From the NCBI GenBank assembly GCA_965279305.1, contig OZ257143.1, positions 1,470,001 to 1,502,000 of the forward strand: a stretch of 32,000 nucleotides of DNA, read 5' to 3'. The position numbers and the translations under genes were made by a program. The notes under the pieces are model-generated. The model had not been told where the DNA came from, ran no database searches, and saw only the letters and a list, made by a program, of their open reading frames with translations. Origin of the DNA: Gammaproteobacteria bacterium (GTDB taxonomy: Bacteria > Pseudomonadota > Gammaproteobacteria > JBIOEC01). Below, piece by piece: positions 11,442 through 25,648 of this stretch (position 1 is the stretch's first letter; every line of letters starts with the position of its first letter).

Positions 11442-12875
11442 ATGTTTAATTTATTTAATTGCTTTAGGAGCCGCCAAAAAACTCCATTATTTACTGATTT
11501 TGCTTTATCTCCTTTGATGAAGGATCCTCCTTATATCCCTTTGACAGAAATACCTGCCTTAGTAGAACCAGAAAAGCCTGAAACATTAATCGTGCTATCT
11601 CTAGATGCAGATGGGATGGTTTTTAATCCCCGTTGGGTTGCATATAAACTAGATTGTATAAAAAGAAATATCGCATGTGATAATGATAGTATTTTTAAGT
11701 TCAATAGGCCATTGGTGGGTTATATTCTTGAGGTTTTACTTGAGCATGGTGTTGATTCTGCTCAGGTAATGGTTGGGTCCATGCGCCAATCAAAATTTGC
11801 TGATAATCATAATATAGAAAAATTTCCAGGAACGGGATCGTATTTTTATTGGTTAGAAATGTTTTGTAACTTTTTTAATGAAGAGTGCAAAGACGATAAT
11901 CTCTCATATCGATTAAAGCTTAACCGTTATTTACTATCAGATACTTATAGTGATACTTCTCATGAATTTAGTTTCATCAATGCGCTTGCTGGACAAGGTC
12001 TTTCTGGTATTGAACTTATTGAGTCTGTAAGTAAAGTTGATAGAGGAAAGTTCGGTATTTTATATGCGCAAATGTTTAAGATAGCTACCGAAAATCCAAA
12101 TAAAAAAATCATATATCGGTTTGTCGATGATCACCAGGAAACGTTAGATGCTTTATATGATATTTTTAGAAAAAACATACGGTATTTGCCTCCAAACGTA
12201 TCTCTTGAAATAGTACGCCATTATTACAATTCTCTAGGAGAACCTGTCATTGATAGATCGCGTTATATTATTCACCCTGATCCTAAAAATATAATGGATG
12301 AATGCTATGAAGAAACGTTGAGAAAAATAGCTAACTATGCAGAAGAAGGAAGAGATATCTATTTTGACTTAGAGTTGCAAGATGAGTTTCAGGGGTTTAG
12401 AGAGAAGATAAACGTACTTAGAAAAGTAGAAGTGATTGTACCTAATAATATTGATAGGTTGCATAGTCTTAGAAAAGAAGTGGAATCTTTGTATGCCGGT
12501 TTGTTAGAACATTATTTTAGTTTTGATGATGATGGGATAGCTGATTGTATGAGCTCTGTTTTTTCAGAAATTCGGACTTTATATCATATCTATATCAAAG
12601 AGTCTGGTCGTTCAAACTTGGAATATTCTTTTGAAGCCATGAATGATTTTTGTTTTATGAAATTAATTTTATCGTATGTGAAAAACTTACTTGAAGGGCG
12701 TTTTGAAAATGGTTTGGTTTCCGGTTGTAGTCAATCTAATATAGAAAATATAGTAAAGGGTAAAATGGGGCTTTATAATACAGCTTCTTTGGCATATGCT
12801 CTAAACACTCTTTATAATATAATAGTTTTCCCTACTGCTCCTGTAAAAGAAAATTTGACTCCTGTGGCAGGTTAA
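11442..12875 (+). CDS. Hypothetical 477-aa protein (possible HAD-like fold), AT-rich insert within the suf operon
   Basis: It is a long uninterrupted ORF. LIVLSLDADGMVFN (DxDG, like HAD motif I), VMVGSMRQS (possible motif II) and RFVDDHQ (possible motif IV) are present. The family is not recognised. Confidence 0.55.
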   Translation: MFNLFNCFRSRQKTPLFTDFALSPLMKDPPYIPLTEIPALVEPEKPETLIVLSLDADGMVFNPRWVAYKLDCIKRNIACDNDSIFKFNRPLVGYILEVLLEHGVDSAQVMVGSMRQSKFADNHNIEKFPGTGSYFYWLEMFCNFFNEECKDDNLSYRLKLNRYLLSDTYSDTSHEFSFINALAGQGLSGIELIESVSKVDRGKFGILYAQMFKIATENPNKKIIYRFVDDHQETLDALYDIFRKNIRYLPPNVSLEIVRHYYNSLGEPVIDRSRYIIHPDPKNIMDECYEETLRKIANYAEEGRDIYFDLELQDEFQGFREKINVLRKVEVIVPNNIDRLHSLRKEVESLYAGLLEHYFSFDDDGIADCMSSVFSEIRTLYHIYIKESGRSNLEYSFEAMNDFCFMKLILSYVKNLLEGRFENGLVSGCSQSNIENIVKGKMGLYNTASLAYALNTLYNIIVFPTAPVKENLTPVAG

Positions 12876-12889
12876 CTTAGAAGGCAAGT

Positions 12890-13198
12890 ATGGCAAATTG
12901 GATCAGCATTAATACCGTAGATAGTTTTACAGACACTCCCAGACAGTTTCTAGATAAAGACAATCTGCATATAGCGATATGTAAAATAGGGGAGCAATTT
13001 TTTGCTTTTGAAAGCATGTGTACTCATGCCATGTATGAGCTAGATGATGCGCCTATAGAAGGTAATGAGATAATCTGCCCTTTGCATGGAGCTCGATTTT
13101 GCTTAAAAACAGGAGAGGTAATGTCACCCCCCGCCTATGAAGACTTAAGGGTGTTCTCAACTCGCGTAAGGGAAGGTCTAGTTGAAATAGAGCTTTAG
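12890..13198 (+). CDS. Rieske [2Fe-2S] ferredoxin-like protein (suf-associated type)
   Basis: 102 aa with Rieske ligands CTH...CPLHGARF. Confidence 0.8.
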   Translation: MANWISINTVDSFTDTPRQFLDKDNLHIAICKIGEQFFAFESMCTHAMYELDDAPIEGNEIICPLHGARFCLKTGEVMSPPAYEDLRVFSTRVREGLVEIEL

Positions 13199-13202
13199 AT
13201 AA

Positions 13203-13439
13203 CTACTCATTGTTAAGTTGGTCGATAATAGTTTCAATTGAATAATCATTTGCCATGCCGCTTTCTTCACCTTCGATTAAAGCTGAACGTAAAGCGCTTA
13301 ATTTGACTTCTCGTTCCTCCAGCATTCTAAGGCCAGCACGAACAATTTCACTAGCAGAGCCATAGCGACCGGATGATATCTGTTTATCTACAAAAAGATT
13401 GAAATGTTCGCCTAAGGCGATACTGGTTGTTTTTGCCAT
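13203..13439 (-). CDS. parD: ParD-family (RHH) type II antitoxin with no adjacent toxin
   Basis: [44 protein letters not shown] is typical ParD. The start was moved to ATG 13439 (GAGGAA upstream). The stop lies 4 nt from the convergent Rieske gene stop. Confidence 0.75.
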
Positions 13440-13512
13440 AAATTCCTCATGGATTACCAATAGATAGTATATGTTGGTAGTTTGATTTTGGCAAGCGGGG
13501 AGAGAAAATGCA

Positions 13513-14480: not shown

Positions 14481-14557
<77 letters not shown>

Positions 14558-15028: not shown

Positions 15029-15790
15029 CTAAGCATATTCTCCCTTTGTCCTCTCAGGCCATTGCCTATAACAATGAACCTGATGAGGGCTAAAATGACC
15101 CTGATAGGCCAATGCCGCTTGGTAAGATGGATCTAAAGAAATCAATGTTACCTGATAGGAATCATTTTCAATAATGAAGGGCTCTGCTGAAAGTATATTT
15201 ATTTTATCTAGTGGATAACTAAGTCCACATCCTAAACATTTTAATAGCGCCTCCTTTTGTGTCCAAATCTCAAAAAATAGCTTATTTTGATCTTTATGTG
15301 GAACTATGGAAAGTGTCTTATATTCTTCAGCCGAAAAGAAATGCTGAGCTATGCTCATAAAATCAAAGTTTGAGATCATAAATTCTATGTCTACCCCAAT
15401 GTTTTGATATTGAGAAATTGAGATCAATATATAGTTACCTGCATGTGAAAGATTAAATTGAATATCCCTTATGTTTTGATGGTGTTTTATCCGCGGTTTT
15501 CCAAAGGATGAATAGACAATATGGATATCAGTAGGAGGTAAAGCTAAATATTGCCCTAGTAAGTAACGCAACGCTCCACGAGCAAGAATGTAACGTTGGC
15601 GATCCTTCTCAAATATATATTTTTTTGATTTCTCCTGTTCATCGGCAGCCAAAAAAGACTGGAGTTGCAATTGATGAGGGGAAAGTTGATCGAGTGTAAA
15701 GCACCATAAATGAATGTTATCACTCGGTAAAACCCAGTTATTCAGACGTAAGGGAGGTGTTATTGGAAGTTCAATTTTTAAAAAAAACAT
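15029..15790 (-). CDS. Sfp-type 4'-phosphopantetheinyl transferase
   Basis: 253 aa with FGKP, FNLSHAGNYILI, IGVDIE and WTQKEALLKCLG (the W/KEA motif). Confidence 0.8.
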   Translation of the reverse strand: MFFLKIELPITPPLRLNNWVLPSDNIHLWCFTLDQLSPHQLQLQSFLAADEQEKSKKYIFEKDRQRYILARGALRYLLGQYLALPPTDIHIVYSSFGKPRIKHHQNIRDIQFNLSHAGNYILISISQYQNIGVDIEFMISNFDFMSIAQHFFSAEEYKTLSIVPHKDQNKLFFEIWTQKEALLKCLGCGLSYPLDKINILSAEPFIIENDSYQVTLISLDPSYQAALAYQGHFSPHQVHCYRQWPERTKGEYA

Positions 15791-16269
15791 AGCATGATAG
15801 GCTTCAATGATGTTTCAGACTGGTAAAAAAGAGTTCTTTATTCTATGCAAGCGTACATATCTAGCGTAAAAACAGCATTCTAACGTATTTTTTAATGTAC
15901 TACCAGCGCCAAAGACTATGTAAACACACATCCTAAAAAGTGGTTGTTTTTTAAGCTATCTTGCGCATAATTTTCTGACTCTTACTAATGTATAAGGCCA
16001 AAAACATATTGCACTAGTTATGGGAACTTCATCACAAATTAACTCTATTACTATATCAGGTTCAGCTATTGTGATTACTCATGGAGAGTTTTTAGATTTA
16101 ATCAGAGAAAATAAACAAGCAAAATCGATCTGATATATACAAGTTAAAAGTATAAAAAATGTGATTGAAATGCTAAATTTTTCTTGACGTAGCCAATTAA
16201 TTATATTAATTTGTTAGGCATGGTTAAGTAGTTTAAGATTTTTTTGATTTGAATTTGGGAGAATGCCTC

Positions 16270-16663
16270 ATGAACCACAAGCTGGGGCATGTAAGGATCC
16301 ATGAAGTCAAAGAATTACCTTCCCCCTTTGTTAAATTGAATGATTGTTCTATTTCTGATTTTGCAGCGAAATTAATTTTTGAAACGCATAATGAAATTTC
16401 ATCATTATTGCATAATATTGATGATTACTTTCGCACCGTCTTTATACGGAATGCCATAACCTCTTGCTAGTGAGTTATCAGAGCTCGCTAATACGGTCGA
16501 ATCAACTGGTTGGAAAATTAAATCTGCAGAAAGAATAGAATACAAAGGTAACGACGCTGCTATTGAAGATTTTAAAAAGAAGAAAGGACTGAATATTAAG
16601 CTTGATAATAATGGAAGGACTAATTTGCCAGCATGGCATTTGGCCCTTCAAGTCACCGTCTGA
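16270..16663 (+). pseudogene. Possible frameshifted or degenerate gene (two abutting ORF pieces), family unknown
   Basis: ATG 16270 is preceded by GGGAGAA, and this piece runs to TAG 16470. From 16472 the +1 frame continues with protein-like sequence (ELSELANTVESTGWKIKSAERIEYKGNDAAIEDF...PAWHLALQVTV) to TGA 16663. Confidence 0.25.
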
Positions 16664-16689
16664 TAGTGAAAAAATAGGGGCTAATAGAA

Positions 16690-18126
16690 ATGTTCCAGAA
16701 GTATGCTTCATTTGCCGGGTTGAGTCTTGGTTTCTTTATTATTATGATGGACATAACCACTGTACCATTGATGTACCCAACCCTTATGAATGTGTTTGAT
16801 GTTAATCCGGCTATGGTCGCTTGGGTCAATAATATTTATCTCATTACTTATGCTTCATTTATTCTTTTAGGAGGTCGGCTTGGAGACTTCACAAATCGAA
16901 AGATTGTATTACTGATTGCTTATTTGGCTATAGGGGTAGGAGCAGCAATTAGTGGTGCAGGACAAAGCTTGTCAGATGTAATTATTGGTCGCGCATTGAT
17001 GGGTGTAGGAGCGGGATTATTGACACCACAGAGCATGGCATATATTTCTATTCTTTTTGCGAGTGGAGGTAGAGGAACTGCACTGGGTATCTGGGGAGCT
17101 GTAGCTGGTATTGCCGCTGCTACTGGGCCTATTGTTACCGAGATATTCTTGACAATGGGGGATTGGCGTTGGGTGATGTGGATCAACATTCCTATCGTGC
17201 TTGTTTGTTTTTTAATTTCCGTTTTGAGTTTACCCAATGTTCCCGGCCGTGGTATTAAATTCTGGGACACTACTGTAAGTGTTTTGTGTGGAGCGTGTTT
17301 GGCAGGAATTATTCTTGGAATCCAATTCATTAATGCGTCTAAATCAATTATAAGCATAGGTGGTGCTCTTTTTATAATGGGAGGTGTGGCTATAAGTGTC
17401 TTGATTAGAAATGAATTGAAGAAAAAACAGGGATACATTTTGTCACCCGAATTATGGGTTGATAATATTTTTCTCAGAATATGTTTAATTTCAGGGCTAC
17501 TTGGATTAAGTCTAACAGCTTTTTATCTTCCTTTAGTATTTCTTTTAGACGTACGAATGAATTTAGGCCCTGTGGCTATAAGCATGGTCATGTTTACTAT
17601 CGCGCTGGCTAATGCATTAGTTGGACCATTCGCAGGTAATCTTTCAGACCGTATGGAGCCAGAAATAATTATTAGACGTGGTTTGATTTTATTTGCAATT
17701 GCAAATGCTTTACTTGGTTTTATTGGTATATTCCTGCCTGAAGGAATTTTGGCCTTAGTAGCACTTTTTGCCGTTATGTTTATTGCTGGAGCGGGTACTG
17801 GTTTAGCTTTTGCGCCTCTTGCTAATTTAGCCGTGGGTCGTGCTCAAGTAGCAACTCTAGGTCGTGCTGCCGCTTTTTTCAACTGTGCGCGCCAAATATC
17901 AAGTGCATTAGGTGGTGTGATTGTAGCTATTGTTTTTGATTGGATAATACGCTTACAATTAGAACATGACATTGAAATAACTACTACAACCCTTCGTGAA
18001 TCATCGACTATTACTGCTAATGCCACTTTAGCTTGTTTTTTGTTTATTGCTATTAGTTTGTCGGTAGCTGCTTATCTATCTTGTAGAAGTGAGCAGGAGC
18101 TTGTAGTAGATGAATCTGGGGCTTAG
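16690..18126 (+). CDS. MFS transporter, DHA2 (EmrB/QacA-like, about 14 TMS) drug/metabolite exporter
   Basis: 478 aa and hydrophobic throughout. The N-terminal motif IIMMDITTVPLMYP resembles the DHA2 LDxTIVNVALP motif, and GRLGDFTNRK resembles motif A. Confidence 0.85.
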   Translation: MFQKYASFAGLSLGFFIIMMDITTVPLMYPTLMNVFDVNPAMVAWVNNIYLITYASFILLGGRLGDFTNRKIVLLIAYLAIGVGAAISGAGQSLSDVIIGRALMGVGAGLLTPQSMAYISILFASGGRGTALGIWGAVAGIAAATGPIVTEIFLTMGDWRWVMWINIPIVLVCFLISVLSLPNVPGRGIKFWDTTVSVLCGACLAGIILGIQFINASKSIISIGGALFIMGGVAISVLIRNELKKKQGYILSPELWVDNIFLRICLISGLLGLSLTAFYLPLVFLLDVRMNLGPVAISMVMFTIALANALVGPFAGNLSDRMEPEIIIRRGLILFAIANALLGFIGIFLPEGILALVALFAVMFIAGAGTGLAFAPLANLAVGRAQVATLGRAAAFFNCARQISSALGGVIVAIVFDWIIRLQLEHDIEITTTTLRESSTITANATLACFLFIAISLSVAAYLSCRSEQELVVDESGA

Positions 18127-18488
18127 TATCTGTTGTAATGCACAATTTTAGTTGGTAAAGTAAGCTTGTGTATAAGTTCCAAAAATTCGGATTATGATAT
18201 TGAATCATTCAAGTTATTGTACGGACCATGTGAGTTTCTGACTAAGTGTTCGCTATCCTTAAGGTGATATAGGATGGTATGAAAAAGAGTTGCTTAAGCA
18301 CTGAGAAGCAAGCAAGATTACTGGTGAGATATATATTAGTGGTACTTTTTTTGTCATATGCTAGATTAAGGTGTACCTATGACAAGAGAAAGAAGAAGCT
18401 CTATGCGGGTTACGGGATAAGTGAAGCAGCAAATGATGATTGGGCGACAGAATAAGAGTCACTATTGACACAATCGAAGGTATTATTG

Positions 18489-19523
18489 ATGACAAATTCA
18501 ACTTCTTTTGGGATAAGTGCATTTGGATATTCATTTGGCGAAAAACAAAATGTGGAAGAAACTGCATGCAATTTTGTTTCTGATCCGGAAAGAGTTTTTA
18601 AATGGGATTGTCAAACCTACTATCGTTCACCCCCTGATCGATTTGCCCTTGATCTGGCAACTGATGCGGCACGTGAAGCTATAAGTAAAGCAAATATCGA
18701 CCCTAATAGTATAGATTTAGTAGCATTTGCTTCAGCAGAAATAGCAGAATATTTATACTGGGATTCCTCAGTTGCACTTGCACGTGCACTGGGCATTGAA
18801 AGAACGCAAACAATGCTACTAAATAATGAAGGTTGCAGTGCAGGGATAAGAATCTTTGGAGCCATTGCAGGAGTCTTTGCAACGCAACCGGAAATTCAAA
18901 CTGTTTTAGTAGTAATAGTTAACCGTGTGAGTGAATATCACAGGAATCGTATGAAGGTTGTTAATTGCATACTAAGCGACGGAGCTGTAACTGCCGTTTT
19001 ACAACGTGGCCATCCTCATAATCAATATTTGGCTTCAGACCATTTCGTCTATCCAGAATTTTGCGATTTTTTTCGAATGGATTATGGTGGAACAAAAGCC
19101 CCCATTACTCCTGCAGGTTGGACTTGCCATGATGAGCATGGTTACGATAAAATATATGAACACTTTGGTGATGATATAGAGAGAATGCAAAACTTTTTAA
19201 CAGTACAGCGTAATGAACGGTTAGCAGAGGTGGTTCAACGTTCTTGTGCACGTGCTAATATATCTAAAGATGATATTTCACATTTCTTTTATGTTGCTGA
19301 TTCTCGCCCAGGAGCTATTGCAGAAATTGTAAAACCTTTTGGAATTCCTATCGAAAACACTAACCTTGAATTAGCAAGAATGTATGGGCATATGGGGGCT
19401 GCTGATCAATTTTTTTCTTTAGGAAAATTTATAGAAAGTAGACATATGGGACCGGGAGATATAGCCGCCATGGCGGGTATTTCATCCGGAATTCAATGGT
19501 GTTCCACTTTGTTTAGAGTATAA
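18489..19523 (+). CDS. KASIII (FabH)-like enzyme of the DpsC/CerJ acyltransferase type (Cys, His-x4-Asp)
   Basis: The nucleophile is in NNEGCSAGIR. The FabH HQAN region reads YVADS, so the His is missing. The FabH GNTSAAS region reads GHMGAAD. I set the start at ATG 18489; the track uses TTG 18465. A 4-nt gap separates it from the NRPS gene. Confidence 0.7.
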   Translation: MTNSTSFGISAFGYSFGEKQNVEETACNFVSDPERVFKWDCQTYYRSPPDRFALDLATDAAREAISKANIDPNSIDLVAFASAEIAEYLYWDSSVALARALGIERTQTMLLNNEGCSAGIRIFGAIAGVFATQPEIQTVLVVIVNRVSEYHRNRMKVVNCILSDGAVTAVLQRGHPHNQYLASDHFVYPEFCDFFRMDYGGTKAPITPAGWTCHDEHGYDKIYEHFGDDIERMQNFLTVQRNERLAEVVQRSCARANISKDDISHFFYVADSRPGAIAEIVKPFGIPIENTNLELARMYGHMGAADQFFSLGKFIESRHMGPGDIAAMAGISSGIQWCSTLFRV

Positions 19524-19527
19524 TCTG

Positions 19528-22500
19528 ATGAATGAAACTATTTTCCAAGCATTTGAAGAACAAGTTAAAAAAACACCTGATTCTATTGCACTTCTTTTTA
19601 AAGAAGAAAAACTTAGCTATAAAGAATTAAATGAAAAATCTAATCAAGTCGCTAGATCCCTGCGTAATCTCTACAAAAAAAATATAGGATTCGACCTTAA
19701 ACCGGATACTCTTATTGGCATTTGTGTTGAACGTAGTTTAGACACCGTTATTGGAATATTAGGAATATTAAAAGCGGGTGGTGCATATGTGCCAATTGAT
19801 ATTGCCTATCCAGAAGGACGAATCCAATTTTTATTAGAAGATACTAAAAGCCCTTTTATCGTGACGCGGAGGCATTTGCAAGAGAAATTAAATAAAATCC
19901 ATAACAACACATTGCATCAGTTTTTCTTAGACGATCTTTCTTATGATAATGAAAGCAAAGATAATTTAAGTATTATACTAGAACCCAATCATTTGGCCTA
20001 CATTATATATACATCAGGAACTACCGGAAAACCAAAAGGTGTTATGCAGACTCATCATAATGTTATGCGCCTATTTACGGCAACACAGGATGTATTTGAA
20101 TTTAACGAAACAGATGTATGGACATTATTCCATTCCTATGTATTTGATTTTACGGTGTGGGAGTTATTGGGTGCTTTAATATATGGTGGAAAACTGGTAA
20201 TACCCAGTCTTGATGAGGTTAAAGATACAAGTAAGTTTTATGATTTATGCGAAAAACATAAGGTTACTGTGTTAAATCAAACACCATTAGTCTTTTATCA
20301 ATTTATTGAGGAAGCAATTAATCGTAAAGAAAAACTGAATAGTTTAAGATGCATAATTTTTGGTGGAGATTATCTTAATATTTCTCAATTGAAACCTTGG
20401 TGGAATCAGTATGGTTTTCTAAAACCTAAATTAATTAATATGTATGGAATTACTGAAACAACGGTATTTGTTACACATAAAATCCTCACTGAAGCGGATA
20501 TAAATAAAGGTTCTATCATTGGCACTGTAATTAAAGATCAAAAAGCTTATGTTTTGGATGAGAATTTAAAACCCGTACCCGTCGGAGTTGTTGGAGAATT
20601 ATATGTGGGTGGTGCTGGTCTTGCCAGAGGATATTTGAATAGAGAAGAAGTAACACAGGAAAGTTTTATTATCAATCCTTATGCCACAAATGAAGATCTA
20701 TTGAAAGGCTATAACCGTATTTATAAAACGGGAGATTTAGTCAAATGGTCTACAAATGGGGATTTAGAATATATCGGCCGTAATGATAAACAAGTTAAAC
20801 TACGCGGCTTTCGAATAGAACTGTTAGAAATTGAAAGTATTTTAAACACTTTTACTGGAATAAAACAAAGCACGGTATTGTTAGATAAGAAAAGCAACAA
20901 TCCATATTTAATAGGTTACTATCGTTCAGAAGCAAAAATAGATGAGGAAATATTACGATCACATTTAGCTAAACATCTACCGGATTATATGGTCCCCAAC
21001 GTTTTAGTCCATTTAAACAAGTTTCCCATTACTATCAATGGAAAATTGGATGTAAACGCATTACCTTGTCCCAATTTTAATTCTACTCAATCTTCCATAA
21101 CACTCAAAAATGAGATTGAAAAGGATGTGGCTGCAATTTGGTCGGAAATTTTAGGAATTGATATAATTGGCACAAATGAAGATTTCTTCAGAATTGGAGG
21201 TGACTCAATTGTAAGTATAAAACTAGTCCTAAAATTGAGAAATAAAGGGTATCATTGTAATGTAAAAAATATATTTGAAAATAGAACCATTGAAAGCCTA
21301 AGCCACTTTTTGAAATCATCTGATATACAATCTAATAAAATTGAAGCAGAACAAGGGTTGTTAACTGGCGAGGTTGATTTATTACCGATTCAACAATGGT
21401 TTTTTAAAAACAAATTTGATAAGCAGAATCATTGGAATCAATCTTTTTTAATCAAGGTTCCATTATTGGATGTTAATAAATTAAATCATGTCCTTGAGAA
21501 ATTAATTGAGCATCATGATGTGTTACGGTTGGTTTTCAAAAAGACAACAAATTTTTATAAACAATTTTATTTGAAAGAAATTAAAATTCCTCTCATTAAT
21601 ACCTTGGATAGATCTGAACTCTCTGATCAACAACTAATTAATATATTTACCAAATGGCAAAGTGATTTTGATATAGAGAATGGTCCTTTATGGAAGATAG
21701 GCTATGTTACTGGTTATAAAGATAATACCGCTCGGATATATTTTGCCTTGCATCATCTTATTATAGATTCTGTTTCATGGAGAATTTTGATTGATCATTT
21801 GAAATGTTTGTATGAAAGTAAGGAATTACCCCCAAAAACCAGCAGCTACCGTCAATGGGTGAGGGCTGTGCAACATTATGCGACTTCGAATAATCAACAA
21901 TTAAGTTATTGGGAACAACATTACATCCCTCAAGTACTAGAAGATGATTTTAAATTTCTTAATGAAAATACCGCACATAATATTAAAAATATTAATCTTG
22001 TCACATTAAATGAAAGTTTGACGAAAATTTTATTAAGGAAAGCCAACAAAGCCTATCATACCGAAATTAATCACTTGTTACTCACTGCCTTAGGATGTGC
22101 ACTAAGGGATTTAACGAATAAAAGTGAACATATTATTCGTCTTGAAGGGCATGGTCGTGAAAAAATCAATGAAATTATAGATGTTAGTCAAACTGTCGGC
22201 TGGTTTACAATACTTTATCCTGTCAAGCTTATGGTGAATGACTCATTAGAAAAGTCTATTCTATCTATCAAAGAAATTTTAAAAAGTATTCCTGACAATG
22301 GAATTGGATACAGTGCACTTAAATATGCAAATAGCGAAAATTCTCTTTGTAAACATTGTCCATCGGGAATTAGCTTTAATTACTTGGGCCAGTTTGATAC
22401 AGAAACCAGTTTGTGGCAAATTGCCGCAGAAAACTCTGGAAATAATTACGGTGCTAATGCTGATGGAAATCTACTAACGATCACAGGCTGGGTTATTGAT

Positions 22501-22641
22501 GGTAAATTAGAATTTGAAATCGTAAGTTGTATGAACGCAATCAAGAGTGAACAATTTTCAAAATTCTTTCAGTCTATTTTAGAAGAAATAATAGTACATT
22601 GCGCAGATTTAGTTAGTAGCGACAAAAAGGCGTTAGTTTAA
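19528..22641 (+). CDS. Stand-alone NRPS module with adenylation-thiolation-epimerization (A-T-E) architecture
   Basis: A-domain cores: LAYIIYTSGTTGKPKGV, NMYGITE, GELYVGGAGLARGY, YKTGDL, GRNDKQVKLRGFRIEL, NGKLD. T domain: FFRIGGDSI, with the Ser codon at 21205-21207. E-domain cores: PIQQWF, HHLIIDSVSW, LLLTALG, EGHGRE, QTVGWFTILYPV, PDNGIGYS, FNYLGQ. Confidence 0.9.
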   Translation: MNETIFQAFEEQVKKTPDSIALLFKEEKLSYKELNEKSNQVARSLRNLYKKNIGFDLKPDTLIGICVERSLDTVIGILGILKAGGAYVPIDIAYPEGRIQFLLEDTKSPFIVTRRHLQEKLNKIHNNTLHQFFLDDLSYDNESKDNLSIILEPNHLAYIIYTSGTTGKPKGVMQTHHNVMRLFTATQDVFEFNETDVWTLFHSYVFDFTVWELLGALIYGGKLVIPSLDEVKDTSKFYDLCEKHKVTVLNQTPLVFYQFIEEAINRKEKLNSLRCIIFGGDYLNISQLKPWWNQYGFLKPKLINMYGITETTVFVTHKILTEADINKGSIIGTVIKDQKAYVLDENLKPVPVGVVGELYVGGAGLARGYLNREEVTQESFIINPYATNEDLLKGYNRIYKTGDLVKWSTNGDLEYIGRNDKQVKLRGFRIELLEIESILNTFTGIKQSTVLLDKKSNNPYLIGYYRSEAKIDEEILRSHLAKHLPDYMVPNVLVHLNKFPITINGKLDVNALPCPNFNSTQSSITLKNEIEKDVAAIWSEILGIDIIGTNEDFFRIGGDSIVSIKLVLKLRNKGYHCNVKNIFENRTIESLSHFLKSSDIQSNKIEAEQGLLTGEVDLLPIQQWFFKNKFDKQNHWNQSFLIKVPLLDVNKLNHVLEKLIEHHDVLRLVFKKTTNFYKQFYLKEIKIPLINTLDRSELSDQQLINIFTKWQSDFDIENGPLWKIGYVTGYKDNTARIYFALHHLIIDSVSWRILIDHLKCLYESKELPPKTSSYRQWVRAVQHYATSNNQQLSYWEQHYIPQVLEDDFKFLNENTAHNIKNINLVTLNESLTKILLRKANKAYHTEINHLLLTALGCALRDLTNKSEHIIRLEGHGREKINEIIDVSQTVGWFTILYPVKLMVNDSLEKSILSIKEILKSIPDNGIGYSALKYANSENSLCKHCPSGISFNYLGQFDTETSLWQIAAENSGNNYGANADGNLLTITGWVIDGKLEFEIVSCMNAIKSEQFSKFFQSILEEIIVHCADLVSSDKKALV

Positions 22642-23712
22642 CTTTCTTTCTTGTGCGATTTTTCTAAAATTTTCAAGAGCTTCAGCAGCAGTTAATTCTT
22701 GGCCTTGTAAAACATCGTTAGCGGGTATAATTTTATAGCGCATATTTTCTGGTATTGAATATTTTGTTGGCAAATACAATTGATCTAGCCCTATACCAAA
22801 AGCACAATTTTCTTGCCCTAAAACTCGAAAATAATGCCTTAATCGATTAGATTCATCTTTAATAATAAATTTTTTCATTTCTGGATCATGACATCCATAT
22901 GTCAAATAATACTCCACATTGTTATTTTCCATTTTACGAACAATATCAACTAAATTGTTATAAAGAACTTCTCCCGGATAAAGCTCCCTATACATTCCTG
23001 AATTTCCTGAACGTGCTCTTGCAGTTTCAGGGTAAGGTGGGTTCATTACAACAAAGTCGCCCGTTTGGAGATCAGATAATGCATGCAAAAAATCACCACT
23101 TTTTAAAATAACATTATTTTTGTTCAAAAGATTTGAGGTTCTATCAACCTCTTCAAAAAAAACTTCTAATGATAGAGAGGCTTCATCAAGGTAACGTTGT
23201 ATTGTTTTTCCTTTTATATTAACTTCTCTATAAACAATATTACCTTGATCATCATGAAGAAGTATCCCACCCCAAGAATGATTAATAATAAAGGGTAATA
23301 ATAATGATTTTTCATCCAAATTTGCTTGATTATAATCACTAATTATTTTTAAAAAAAATTCTTTTTTGGTATCTGAGTGGTCATATTCGCGTATCAATGA
23401 TTCATACTTTGATTTTACTCTCTTTGGTGCTTCTTTGATTAGGCATAGAGTATTAATGAGTGCTTCATCACTATCATTAATGATATATTGGTCTGCTAGA
23501 CCTAGTTCCATCGCTGCTAAACTCCATGAGGCACTTCCAGAAAGCGGATCAAAACAACGTTTAAATTTTTTGCCTTGCGAATTTGCTATAATGACTGCAA
23601 AATGATCATCAAGTAAGTTCTTGTCAATTTCCATCCGACCAGAGTGCATGGGTAGTGTTAGGTTTCTATTTCCAAGATAATGTAAGAGTCCGCCTTTATT
23701 TTTTGATAGCAT
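22633..23712 (-). CDS. Dam-like (D12 class, alpha-type) N6-adenine methyltransferase, orphan
   Basis: Motif I CFDPLSGSAS (aa 53-62) is followed by YIINDSDEALINTLCLIKE. Motif IV is NPPY (aa 224-227), about 170 aa downstream, which is the alpha-class order. The gene is very AT-rich, and its 3' end overlaps the NRPS 3' end by 9 nt. Confidence 0.55.
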   Translation of the reverse strand: MLSKNKGGLLHYLGNRNLTLPMHSGRMEIDKNLLDDHFAVIIANSQGKKFKRCFDPLSGSASWSLAAMELGLADQYIINDSDEALINTLCLIKEAPKRVKSKYESLIREYDHSDTKKEFFLKIISDYNQANLDEKSLLLPFIINHSWGGILLHDDQGNIVYREVNIKGKTIQRYLDEASLSLEVFFEEVDRTSNLLNKNNVILKSGDFLHALSDLQTGDFVVMNPPYPETARARSGNSGMYRELYPGEVLYNNLVDIVRKMENNNVEYYLTYGCHDPEMKKFIIKDESNRLRHYFRVLGQENCAFGIGLDQLYLPTKYSIPENMRYKIIPANDVLQGQELTAAEALENFRKIAQERKLN

Positions 23713-24016: not shown

Positions 24017-25648
24017 ATGTCAAATGACCTGATTTATCTAAAAGAAGACGCTTATTTCGAACCTTTGATAAATCACTGGTTTGCGTGGTCTTATCTTATT
24101 CCACCGGTTCAGGCTTCACGCTATATCACTAACACTCATAAAAGGATCATGTCTTCCTTCGTTGAAGACACGCAAGTGCACATCTTTGGGTCAAAAGAAC
24201 CAGCACTCGCAGGCGGTGACTTTCTCAACGCTCGTGACGATCAGGTGAAAGACATCAAAGCATTGCTGGCGGAGTTCGATGAAAAGCATGCCGATGTAGT
24301 TAAGCTTTCTGAAGCAGTACAGGAGCTCGACGAGATGATCCGCGCACATATCAGCGGCGAGTCTATTGAATATATGTATGAAAAAGTTCCTCTGCCGCTC
24401 AAAGGCTTCGTCGAAATCGGTATGGATATGAACCACAACCCCTGTTATCGTTTGCTGGAGCATTTGCTTTACAACTCAGAGCATTATCGCAAATCACTAC
24501 AAAGTATCTACTTCGGTTTACTTTCCAAGATCGAAGAGCGTCCTTTCTGTTTTTCGACACCGCGTTTGGCCGATGAGAACCACATTCAATTGGCGATGGA
24601 TTTCTGTGCACCAGAGGTAGATATTTTAGTCAAGTCGCGCACTGAAGGCGTACCGTGCGAGATGGTGAATGATATATTTGCGCGCTTCGAGACTCGCGGC
24701 GGCCTTGATTATCGCGAATTGTTCACTACTGAGCCGCCGTCAAGACGCCGTGAGCCGGTGAGCGATGACAGCTTGAAATTGACTTTCCTCGGTCATGCCT
24801 CGTTTATGATAGAAACCAAAGATATCAATATTTTAATTGATCCGGTAATTCCCATTAGAGGCAAAAAATATGCCGATGACGTGATTAGCTATTCTGAGCT
24901 ACCCAAGAAAATCAACTATATTTGCATTACCCACAATCACCATGACCACTATAACCTTGAAACCTTGCTACAGTTGCGCCATAAAACGGACAAGCTGGTT
25001 CTACCCATCAACAATGGTGGAACATTGCCGGATCCGTCGATGAAGCTGATAGCCAAACAATTGGGCTTTAAAGTAATTGAGGTGGACGACTTTGATGAAA
25101 TCGAGATCCCAGATGGCAAGATAACGGCGATCCCATTTCTTGGCGAACACGGCGACCTCAATGTGCGTTCAAAAACCGTGTGGCTTATAGAACTCAAAGG
25201 TAAGAAATACTTCTTCGGCGCCGATGCCACCAACTATAATCCGCAAATGTACCGTCATGTCCAAAAGTTGGTTGGGGATGTCGATGTATTGGCTATCGGA
25301 ATGGAATGTGTCGGAGCTCCCTATTCTTGGCTCTATGGTGCACTTAACACTAGGGACGTCAGTAAAAACATCACAAATTCACGTCGTCTGAACGGCTCCA
25401 ATGCCGATCAGGCTTATCATATGGCAGATACTTTCAATGCTAAACAAGTTTATCTTTATGCAATGGGCATGGAACCTTGGTACAAGTACTTTATGGGCTT
25501 AGTTTATAACGAGAACTCACAGCAAATAATTGAGTCAGATAAGATGATTAAGCGCTGTGAAAATAAAGGAATACCATGTCAACGCTTAGCTCTTAACTGC
25601 TACATTCTGACAGATTTAGGTAGTAGCCACAAAATGGCGCCAGTTTAA
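24017..25648 (+). CDS. Two-domain protein: unknown N-terminal domain of about 250 aa plus a C-terminal MBL-fold hydrolase (NAPE-PLD/UlaG-like)
   Basis: LKLTFLGHASFMIETKDINILIDPV, ICITHNHHDHYN (HxHxDH), FLGEHGD and FFGADAT. The gene is clearly GC-richer than its neighbours. Confidence 0.7.
   Translation: MSNDLIYLKEDAYFEPLINHWFAWSYLIPPVQASRYITNTHKRIMSSFVEDTQVHIFGSKEPALAGGDFLNARDDQVKDIKALLAEFDEKHADVVKLSEAVQELDEMIRAHISGESIEYMYEKVPLPLKGFVEIGMDMNHNPCYRLLEHLLYNSEHYRKSLQSIYFGLLSKIEERPFCFSTPRLADENHIQLAMDFCAPEVDILVKSRTEGVPCEMVNDIFARFETRGGLDYRELFTTEPPSRRREPVSDDSLKLTFLGHASFMIETKDINILIDPVIPIRGKKYADDVISYSELPKKINYICITHNHHDHYNLETLLQLRHKTDKLVLPINNGGTLPDPSMKLIAKQLGFKVIEVDDFDEIEIPDGKITAIPFLGEHGDLNVRSKTVWLIELKGKKYFFGADATNYNPQMYRHVQKLVGDVDVLAIGMECVGAPYSWLYGALNTRDVSKNITNSRRLNGSNADQAYHMADTFNAKQVYLYAMGMEPWYKYFMGLVYNENSQQIIESDKMIKRCENKGIPCQRLALNCYILTDLGSSHKMAPV

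Follow-up and report, generated by a model that had tools for sequence, protein, structure and literature searches.

How could an amino acid tethered to a nonribosomal peptide synthetase (NRPS) leave its carrier at a locus that encodes neither a condensation (C) nor a thioesterase (TE) domain? The question is raised by a stretch of 32,000 nt from a gammaproteobacterial genome (contig OZ257143.1, positions 1,470,001 to 1,502,000; the whole stretch is hereafter the window), in which the initial annotation had recognised genes for an Sfp-type 4'-phosphopantetheinyl transferase (PPTase), a major facilitator superfamily (MFS) exporter, an enzyme resembling β-ketoacyl-acyl carrier protein synthase III (KASIII-like) and a protein made of adenylation (A), thiolation (T) and epimerisation (E) domains (A-T-E). 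Pfam searches, alignments and motifs confirm all four genes (Table 1). The extent first given to the cluster (15029–22641) holds for the genes that lie there and falls short of the whole, since a CmlA-family β-hydroxylase gene and a methyltransferase pseudogene had been overlooked; with these, the unit reaches about position 25648. The comparisons that we have carried out lead us to consider, with moderate confidence, that the locus is an orphan and rearranged cassette for adding an amino acid, such as completes phenazine antibiotics of the griseoluteic-acid type (D-alanylgriseoluteic acid and the pelagiomicins); the enzymatic steps of this cassette we infer. In the best reading, the KASIII-like enzyme would stand in for the C and TE domains and carry the T-bound amino acid over to an acceptor.

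We have analysed the whole window for NRPS-related functions, and all negative results at this level cover its 32 kb. As the initial annotation had stated, no gene for a C, TE, reductase (R) or MbtH-like function and no separate acyl carrier protein (ACP) gene was found in the window. Indeed, tblastn with multidomain NRPS queries, including TE domains, matched the A-T-E gene only, and a six-frame motif scan returned no MbtH, TE or R signature; the one carrier core and the one HHxxxD motif that it picked up lie within the A-T-E gene. Pfam scans of the remaining open reading frames (ORFs) of the window yielded nothing NRPS-related (suf genes, rpsD, ParD, a protein kinase and similar). Promoter and terminator scans of the locus performed no better than on shuffled sequence, and no conclusion on operon structure is drawn.

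The gene combination had been taken for an undescribed pathway, a view that does not stand: an A enzyme, a carrier, a KASIII-like enzyme and an MFS transporter make up the amino-acid-adding end of the ehp cluster (PMC11310501), and the KASIII-like AfcL is a shown precedent (PMC12186527). Microbulbifer variabilis, a pelagiomicin producer (PMC9628828), carries a series of genes for a methyltransferase, an MFS transporter, a short-chain dehydrogenase/reductase (SDR), an acyl-CoA dehydrogenase (ACAD)-like protein, an A enzyme, a carrier, a KASIII-like enzyme and a CmlA homolog. This series directly adjoins phzA/B, D, E, F and G and the genes for an EhpF-like ligase and an aldehyde dehydrogenase. 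A 207 kb Pantoea agglomerans plasmid has this series too, minus the hydroxylase gene; the two clusters are orthologous gene for gene, and the plasmid series is the ehp cluster for D-alanylgriseoluteic acid (AGA). Counted from EhpJ, the last three genes of the ehp cluster, which has been known genetically since 2002, encode EhpM (A), EhpN (carrier) and EhpO (KASIII-like). EhpO is said to add the amino-acid moiety to griseoluteic acid, and deletion of ehpO abolishes activity (PMC11310501).

The logic of the window locus, with its adenylating enzyme, carrier, KASIII-like transferase and MFS transporter but no C or TE domain, is that of the ehp and M. variabilis clusters; the transporters are orthologous (53–65% identity), the hydroxylase is 74% identical to that of M. 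variabilis and the order of methyltransferase and MFS is kept. In AGA the amino acid has the D configuration, and the window encodes an E domain. The differences are also substantial. The window has neither the phenazine core nor the griseoluteic-acid genes, its KASIII-like gene precedes the loader, and a dedicated PPTase gene is adjacent. EhpM is a stand-alone A enzyme, about 25% identical to the window A domain, and its M. variabilis ortholog matches models of DltA, a D-alanine ligase, whereas the window loader is a fused NRPS-type A-T-E protein with a threonine-type pocket. The KASIII-like enzyme, from a sister lineage, has 24–25% identity with EhpO and its M. variabilis counterpart. As judged from these comparisons, the cassette is a mosaic with parts from three different lineages.

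A second system in which a KASIII-like enzyme takes the place of C and TE domains is the AFC-BC11 pathway of Burkholderia, whose cluster has neither C nor TE domains. Here AfcL, with Cys, His and Asp in its active site, has been shown biochemically to release a carrier-bound chain: the aminoacyl or peptidyl chain moves onto the AfcL Cys, and the enzyme forms the bond that releases it (PMC12186527). AfcL is likened to the window enzyme by description and not by sequence, and differs in forming an amide with Lys-CoA, in acting on a lipo-tri-β-alanyl chain and in working with a stand-alone carrier and a VinN-type loader. Tri31 of triacsin biosynthesis, also considered as a KASIII-like analogue, was dropped, being a 25 kDa N-acyltransferase. 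The initial annotation had let the KASIII-like enzyme replace the missing C/TE function in either of two ways; transfer to an acceptor agrees with the comparison with ehp and AfcL, and acylation of the T-bound amino acid finds no support.

The relation to the ehp pathway is seen in the transporter and in the pseudogene that precedes it. A tblastn search of the window with all M. variabilis and Pantoea cluster proteins matched only the MFS gene, the CmlA homolog, weakly the A domain and the KASIII-like gene, and an 83-residue methyltransferase pseudogene. The MFS protein (Pfam MFS_1, 4e-43; DHA2 type) is 65% identical to the MFS of the M. variabilis cluster and 53% to Pantoea EhpJ, the MFS of the ehp cluster (PMC3175449; PMC8182272). 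Among 72,556 plasmids its matches below 1e-60 fall only on four Pantoea AGA plasmids, and one of these matches includes the transposon site assigned to ehpJ (PMC8182272). The comparison supports the view that this protein is an ortholog of the exporter of an amino-acid-adding phenazine pathway, and agrees with the export role initially proposed for it. The pseudogene is 64% identical to residues 142–224 of the 224-residue M. variabilis methyltransferase, i.e. its last 83 residues, and 45% identical to the Pantoea ehp methyltransferase; there is an in-frame stop within the alignment (GMP*PLA), and the N-terminal part was not found in the 900-bp gap upstream of the MFS gene. The succession of pseudogene and MFS gene reproduces the order of methyltransferase and MFS genes in both ehp-type clusters, the former lying directly upstream of the latter in M. 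variabilis, and the pseudogene records the phenazine-cluster ancestry of the cassette.

The overlooked hydroxylase gene lies 1.4 kb downstream of the A-T-E gene. CmlA-family enzymes hydroxylate amino acids while these are bound to an NRPS carrier. The window protein matches PDB entry 8a90 (2e-113) and CmlA (3e-102), both over the full length, scores 257 bits with the CmlA_N model against a cut-off of 25, and has the HNHHDH metal motif and all 86 of the 86 family-invariant positions. Its relatives are at 66–79% identity, far closer than those of the other cassette proteins; the 74% homolog of M. variabilis follows the KASIII-like gene of the phenazine cluster, and metagenomic homologs at 68–70% (L093–L095) stand in unrelated contexts (PvdQ-like acylase, ABC exporter). 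The likeness to the CmlP/CmlA system is in a CmlA-type enzyme hydroxylating an amino acid on an NRPS carrier, although CmlP is an A-T-R protein with reductive release and not with the KASIII-like release proposed here. The GC content at third codon positions (GC3) of the hydroxylase gene, 0.49, is a compositional outlier; close homologs range from 0.35 (M. variabilis) to 0.81 (soil metagenomes), and the other genes of the window lie at 0.21–0.40. The hydroxylase was probably acquired more recently than its neighbours, and since GC3 is like that of the host in the MFS, KASIII-like, A-T-E and PPTase genes, the parts of the cassette seem to have arrived at different times. Between the A-T-E and hydroxylase genes there is a 359-residue ORF on the reverse strand (22633–23712), which shares 9 nt with the end of the A-T-E gene, has an NPPY motif, shows a weak Dam-family match (TIGR00571, 4.6e-12) below the cut-off and has no Pfam match.

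We have then to consider what the KASIII-like enzyme can do. Its ORF (18465–19523) opens with an alternative TTG start at 18465; the true start is likely the ATG at 18489, which gives a protein of 344 residues identical to database entry P0001. ACP_syn_III_C is the sole Pfam domain called, and the sequence matches in the PDB are NatS (7vyu), ChlB3, CerJ and DpsC. The AlphaFold model (predicted local distance difference test, pLDDT, 91; predicted template modelling score, pTM, 0.91) retrieves with Foldseek the same four enzymes at the top, in the order ChlB3, NatS, DpsC and CerJ, with template modelling (TM) scores of 0.79–0.84 and E values of 1e-24 to 1e-26, and FabH enzymes rank behind them. 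Cys116 (EGCSAG), His301 and Asp306 (GHMGAAD, H-x4-D) show no variation among the 20 family members aligned and line up with the ChlB3 residues. The position of the FabH catalytic His is taken by Asp271, invariant in the family, and the His/Asn pair of FabH type is absent, which makes decarboxylative condensation unlikely. CerJ, DpsC, ChlB3 and NatS have in common with the window enzyme the fold, the Cys (or Ser)-His-Asp triad, the H-x4-D spacing and the lack of decarboxylation residues, but are only 16–22% identical to it, and they move malonyl, propionyl or 6-methylsalicylyl groups from coenzyme A (CoA) or ACP and not aminoacyl groups from an NRPS T domain. Residues, PDB matches and fold agree with the first proposal of a DpsC/CerJ-type acyltransferase rather than a Claisen enzyme, and comparison supports its placement among the non-decarboxylating acyltransferases of the CerJ/DpsC/ChlB3 kind. 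From its residues and homologs, acyl transfer would proceed through a covalent acyl-enzyme without Claisen condensation.

These features also bear on the possibility that the KASIII-like enzyme modifies the amino acid rather than releasing it, either N-acylating the T-bound residue from acyl-CoA or acyl-ACP or condensing it with malonyl, in which case release would be left to hydrolysis or to another enzyme. Such a role was the acylation variant proposed at the outset, and KASIII-like enzymes form C–C, C–O, C–S and C–N bonds in various pathways (PMC12186527). We regard it as very improbable: the residues for decarboxylative condensation are missing, the nearest structures are those of acyl-transfer enzymes, the window has no release enzyme (TE, R or hydrolase), and EhpO, the KASIII-like enzyme of the related ehp system, is the one said to join the amino acid to its acceptor (PMC11310501).

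The genomic context of the family points to carrier-bound substrates. We have typed 86 loci, 80 from reference genomes and several metagenomic; relatives at 45–59% identity come mainly from actinomycetes, with some from Burkholderia. A gene for an FkbH-type or adenylation-type carrier loader lies within 10 kb in 84 of the 86 loci, and one of the two loci with neither type (L087) is a 3.2 kb contig ending just beyond the KASIII-like gene. The succession of KASIII-like gene, gene for an FkbH-domain protein (TIGR01686, above cut-off) and small carrier gene is seen in 56 of the 80 genome loci, and a stand-alone A domain with an 80-residue carrier directly upstream of the KASIII-like gene in about 25 loci; at least two phenazine core genes occur within 10 kb in 17 of the 80. 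The association between this KASIII family and carrier loaders is more than chance, and the loader genes suggest that the family acts on small polar carrier-bound acyl groups (aminoacyl or glyceryl). Of the co-occurrence with A-T-E genes that had been put forward for checking, this part, a carrier-loading gene nearby, is borne out. The closest homolog (P0002, 59% identity) has an uninformative context, on a 3.2 kb contig that stops 29 codons into the next gene. In a neighbour-joining tree, for which no bootstrap was computed, the closest partner of the window enzyme is an unplaced metagenomic sequence, and both join enzymes of Burkholderia phenazine clusters, beside a phenazine clade with A and T genes. 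The KASIII-like enzymes of these Burkholderia and actinomycete phenazine clusters (e.g. on the B. ubonensis plasmid pMSMB2035) belong to the same lineage, at 46–54% identity, and form the nearest clade; their genes adjoin those of a carrier and a loader, with the order KASIII-like, loader, carrier in the FkbH type. Unlike the window, these clusters contain phenazine genes, load through FkbH (glyceryl) or a stand-alone A enzyme and have no E domain or CmlA homolog.

Two groups of loci in this family deserve description on their own account. In 45 actinomycete loci (L003–L078; e.g. L084:10001–20867) there is a conserved cluster that encodes a KASIII-like enzyme, FkbH, ACP, a lysine N-monooxygenase, a cupin, a methionyl-tRNA synthetase (MetRS)-like protein, an ATP-grasp enzyme, a dimethylarginine dimethylaminohydrolase (DDAH)-like protein, an avidin-like protein and a solute-binding protein; by its gene content, this looks like a hydrazine-synthetase-type set joined to a glyceryl-ACP/KASIII module. 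In Burkholderia (L081 and L103; e.g. L103:56–17179), a conjugative B. ubonensis plasmid of 299 kb carries a phenazine cluster in which phz genes stand together with those for an EhpF-like ligase and an aldehyde dehydrogenase, a set of ketosynthase, ACP and TE genes, and KASIII-like, FkbH and ACP genes, which suggests glyceryl-type esters of a griseoluteic-acid-like phenazine.

A distinct origin is evident for the loading enzyme. The A-T-E protein, whose gene begins 4 nt past the stop codon of the KASIII-like gene, aligns end to end with TycA (E=1e-185) and has the same three domains as GrsA and TycA, with all core motifs; its last domain aligns with the isolated E domains of both. Pfam labels this domain 'Condensation', and its reading as a true C domain was rejected on the E-domain alignment and the motifs PIQQWF, HHLIIDSVSW, EGHGRE and NYLGQ. 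The closest named relatives of the A domain are the threonine modules of PvdD, the nearest relative of the protein, at 55% identity, is an internal module with a C-domain protein next in line, and the protein appears to derive from ordinary multimodular NRPS lines. The A domain keeps 75 of 77 family-invariant positions, and one of the only two lost lies in the specificity code: the roughly 100 nearest A domains all carry the threonine code, DFWN[IV]GM[VI]HK, without a single Phe at 331, the position where the window protein has exchanged His for Phe (His331Phe; residue 314 of the A-T-E protein). This exchange is a candidate specificity switch; with the polar His lost, valine may fit better than threonine, and the pocket may have shifted to this isosteric residue, which would yield 3-hydroxyvaline after hydroxylation. 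The amino acid of pelagiomicin A is presumably 3-hydroxyvaline as well.

The end of the A-T-E protein is relevant to whether it could be a canonical initiation module, which like GrsA or TycA would pass its D-aminoacyl thioester on to a synthetase with a C domain, encoded beyond the window, and leave the KASIII-like enzyme with an unrelated or accessory role. The full-length alignment with TycA and the position of the closest relatives, modules of multimodular lines that precede C domains, are what such a module would show, and our searches cover 32 kb of the genome. However, all 18 E-containing relatives extend beyond the end of the window protein, either through fusion to a C or TE domain or with a tail of 19–40 residues (TPSDF...ISQSLLDxLQ), and TycA runs 43 residues longer; the window protein ends (...LVSSDKKALV) where the TPSDF motif would begin, 10 residues past the E-domain alignment. 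The absence of such a communication-mediating (COM)-type docking tail argues against hand-over to a partner C-domain synthetase. No C-domain gene or remnant occurs within the 32 kb, the KASIII-like gene stands 4 nt upstream in a family that is nearly always accompanied by a carrier-loading gene, and the MFS gene, CmlA homolog and pseudogene tie the locus to a pathway with KASIII-like release. Taken together, these observations make an initiation module quite improbable.

Under the reading that we prefer, an amino-acid-adding cassette with KASIII-like release, the proteins can be arranged in a scheme. The PPTase (Pfam ACPS, 1e-16, and AASDHPPT_N, 3e-13; NCBIfam HetI, 6e-47, under its cut-off) has intact GVDIE and WTQKEALLK motifs and a host-like GC3 of 0.30, and its gene is transcribed divergently from the cassette; its presumed part is to prime the only T domain present, that of the A-T-E protein. 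The A domain would then load a small β-branched amino acid, possibly valine given the altered threonine-type pocket, the diiron enzyme of CmlA type would hydroxylate Cβ of the T-bound L-aminoacyl group, and the E domain would epimerise Cα. The aminoacyl group would pass to Cys116 of the KASIII-like enzyme and from there to the hydroxyl (or amine) of an acceptor, which would release the product without any C or TE domain, and the EhpJ-type transporter would export the product or the acceptor. Such a scheme would mirror the action proposed for EhpM, EhpN and EhpO and would be in agreement with the biochemistry of AfcL.

A number of observations weigh against this reading. The function is transferred from EhpO at about 25% identity, and therefore from a sister lineage and not from an ortholog, and we found no biochemistry in the literature for the window's own KASIII lineage, including the members in Burkholderia and actinomycete phenazine clusters. 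An E domain was seen together with this family at no other of the loci examined, and this part of the expected co-occurrence with A-T-E genes does not stand. The KASIII-like enzyme keeps 25 of 28 family-invariant positions, slightly fewer than any other member, with the changes Gly40Asp, Ala168Thr and Asn270Ala, the last adjoining the active-site Asp271; the E domain keeps 62 of 67, again slightly fewer than any other member of its family. A threonine-type A domain beside a β-hydroxylase is chemically awkward unless His331Phe alters the specificity. The methyltransferase of the ancestral pathway is dead, and the tblastn search with the M. variabilis and Pantoea cluster proteins found in the window no phenazine core, EhpF-like or aldehyde dehydrogenase gene, so that the expected acceptor has no visible source; the SDR and ACAD-like genes of the related clusters were not found there either.

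Several of these points would equally be expected of a decaying relic, i.e. the remnant of an ehp- or pelagiomicin-type phenazine cluster that has lost its core, makes no product and is heading to pseudogenisation. The truncated methyltransferase with its in-frame stop, the missing phz, SDR, ACAD-like, EhpF-like and aldehyde dehydrogenase genes and the deviations of the KASIII-like enzyme and E domain at invariant positions are consistent with decay, as are the apparently small genome (1.87 Mb contig) and the fact that every window protein is a singleton. On the other hand, the five long ORFs are open, including one of 1037 codons at 32% GC, all catalytic motifs of the cassette proteins are intact and the CmlA homolog has lost no invariant position. 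The host-like GC3 of the MFS, KASIII-like, A-T-E and PPTase genes indicates long residence with the reading frames kept open. In addition, the loader and the transferase are replacements and not the ancestral ehp ones, which suggests remodelling rather than simple loss. We consider a relic unlikely on this balance; were the locus inactive, it would be a dated example of cluster decay.

As to novelty, the gene logic is, by comparison, already known from the ehp and M. variabilis clusters, and what would be new is the orphan context and the remodelled parts, not a class of pathway. A further proposal, which we put forward only tentatively, is that the cassette has been freed from phenazine biosynthesis and re-tooled, with a new NRPS-type A-T-E loader, another KASIII lineage and the exchanges His331Phe and Asn270Ala. 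It would then, in a small-genome bacterium that lives in association with a host, join a D-β-hydroxy amino acid (e.g. D-3-hydroxyvaline) to an acceptor other than a phenazine. This acceptor might be a metabolite of the bacterium or of its host; were it instead another molecule of the hydroxy amino acid itself, an ester-linked dimer would result. If true, the cassette would make a small molecule of a type not described so far, and activity without a phenazine would point to an acceptor and a metabolite that are both new, in a bacterium of intracellular type. The locus also illustrates how pieces of antibiotic clusters are reshuffled. FabH-like release of NRPS-bound amino acids, as opposed to release by C or TE domains, is poorly charted, the evidence for EhpO being genetic and that for AfcL biochemical and only from 2025. 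Being compact and self-contained, with a PPTase, a single A-T-E protein, a hydroxylase and an exporter, the locus would be convenient for reconstituting such release chemistry.

Table 1. Genes, domains and pseudogene of the cassette, with positions in the window.
Feature	Position	Strand	Basis
Sfp/HetI-type 4'-phosphopantetheinyl transferase (PPTase)	15029..15790	-	Pfam, NCBIfam, motifs
Methyltransferase pseudogene, ehp-type, S-adenosylmethionine (SAM)-dependent, C-terminal third	16412..16660	+	Homology to M. variabilis methyltransferase
EhpJ-type MFS (DHA2) transporter	16690..18126	+	Pfam MFS_1, cluster homology
KASIII-like acyltransferase (Cys116/His301/Asp306), proposed off-loading enzyme	18489..19523	+	Sequence, fold, residues, context
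A domain of A-T-E protein, code DFWNIGMVFK	19528..21087	+	Pfam AMP-binding 1e-86
T (peptidyl carrier protein, PCP) domain of A-T-E protein, GGDSI core	21088..21342	+	Pfam PP-binding 1e-11
E domain of A-T-E protein, without COM-type docking tail	21343..22641	+	GrsA/TycA alignment, motifs
CmlA-family non-haem diiron β-hydroxylase	24017..25648	+	Pfam CmlA_N 1e-76 plus metallo-β-lactamase (MBL) domains

Upstream of the cassette the window contains a suf operon (sufB, C, D, S and FeS_assembly_P, followed by a 477-residue ORF at 11442–12875 (+) with no family match), which ends with the gene for a small Rieske [2Fe-2S] protein (12890–13198, +). Between the latter and rpsD lies a ParD-type antitoxin gene (13203–13460, -; 3e-32) with no adjoining ParE toxin gene. 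A tRNA-Met gene (14481–14557, +), a typical point of island insertion, is found between rpsD and the PPTase gene; a search downstream for an att-like direct repeat of its 3' end found none. Downstream of the hydroxylase gene there are a weakly ankyrin-like ORF with hydrophobic stretches (25828–26676, -), a eukaryotic-type Ser/Thr kinase gene (27007–28740, +; Pkinase 7e-46), a short WD40-like fragment (29039–29284, +) and an ORF of more than 845 residues with no domain match, running from 29465 to beyond 32000 (+). By their predicted content, the effector-like genes on this side of the cassette fit a host-associated bacterium.

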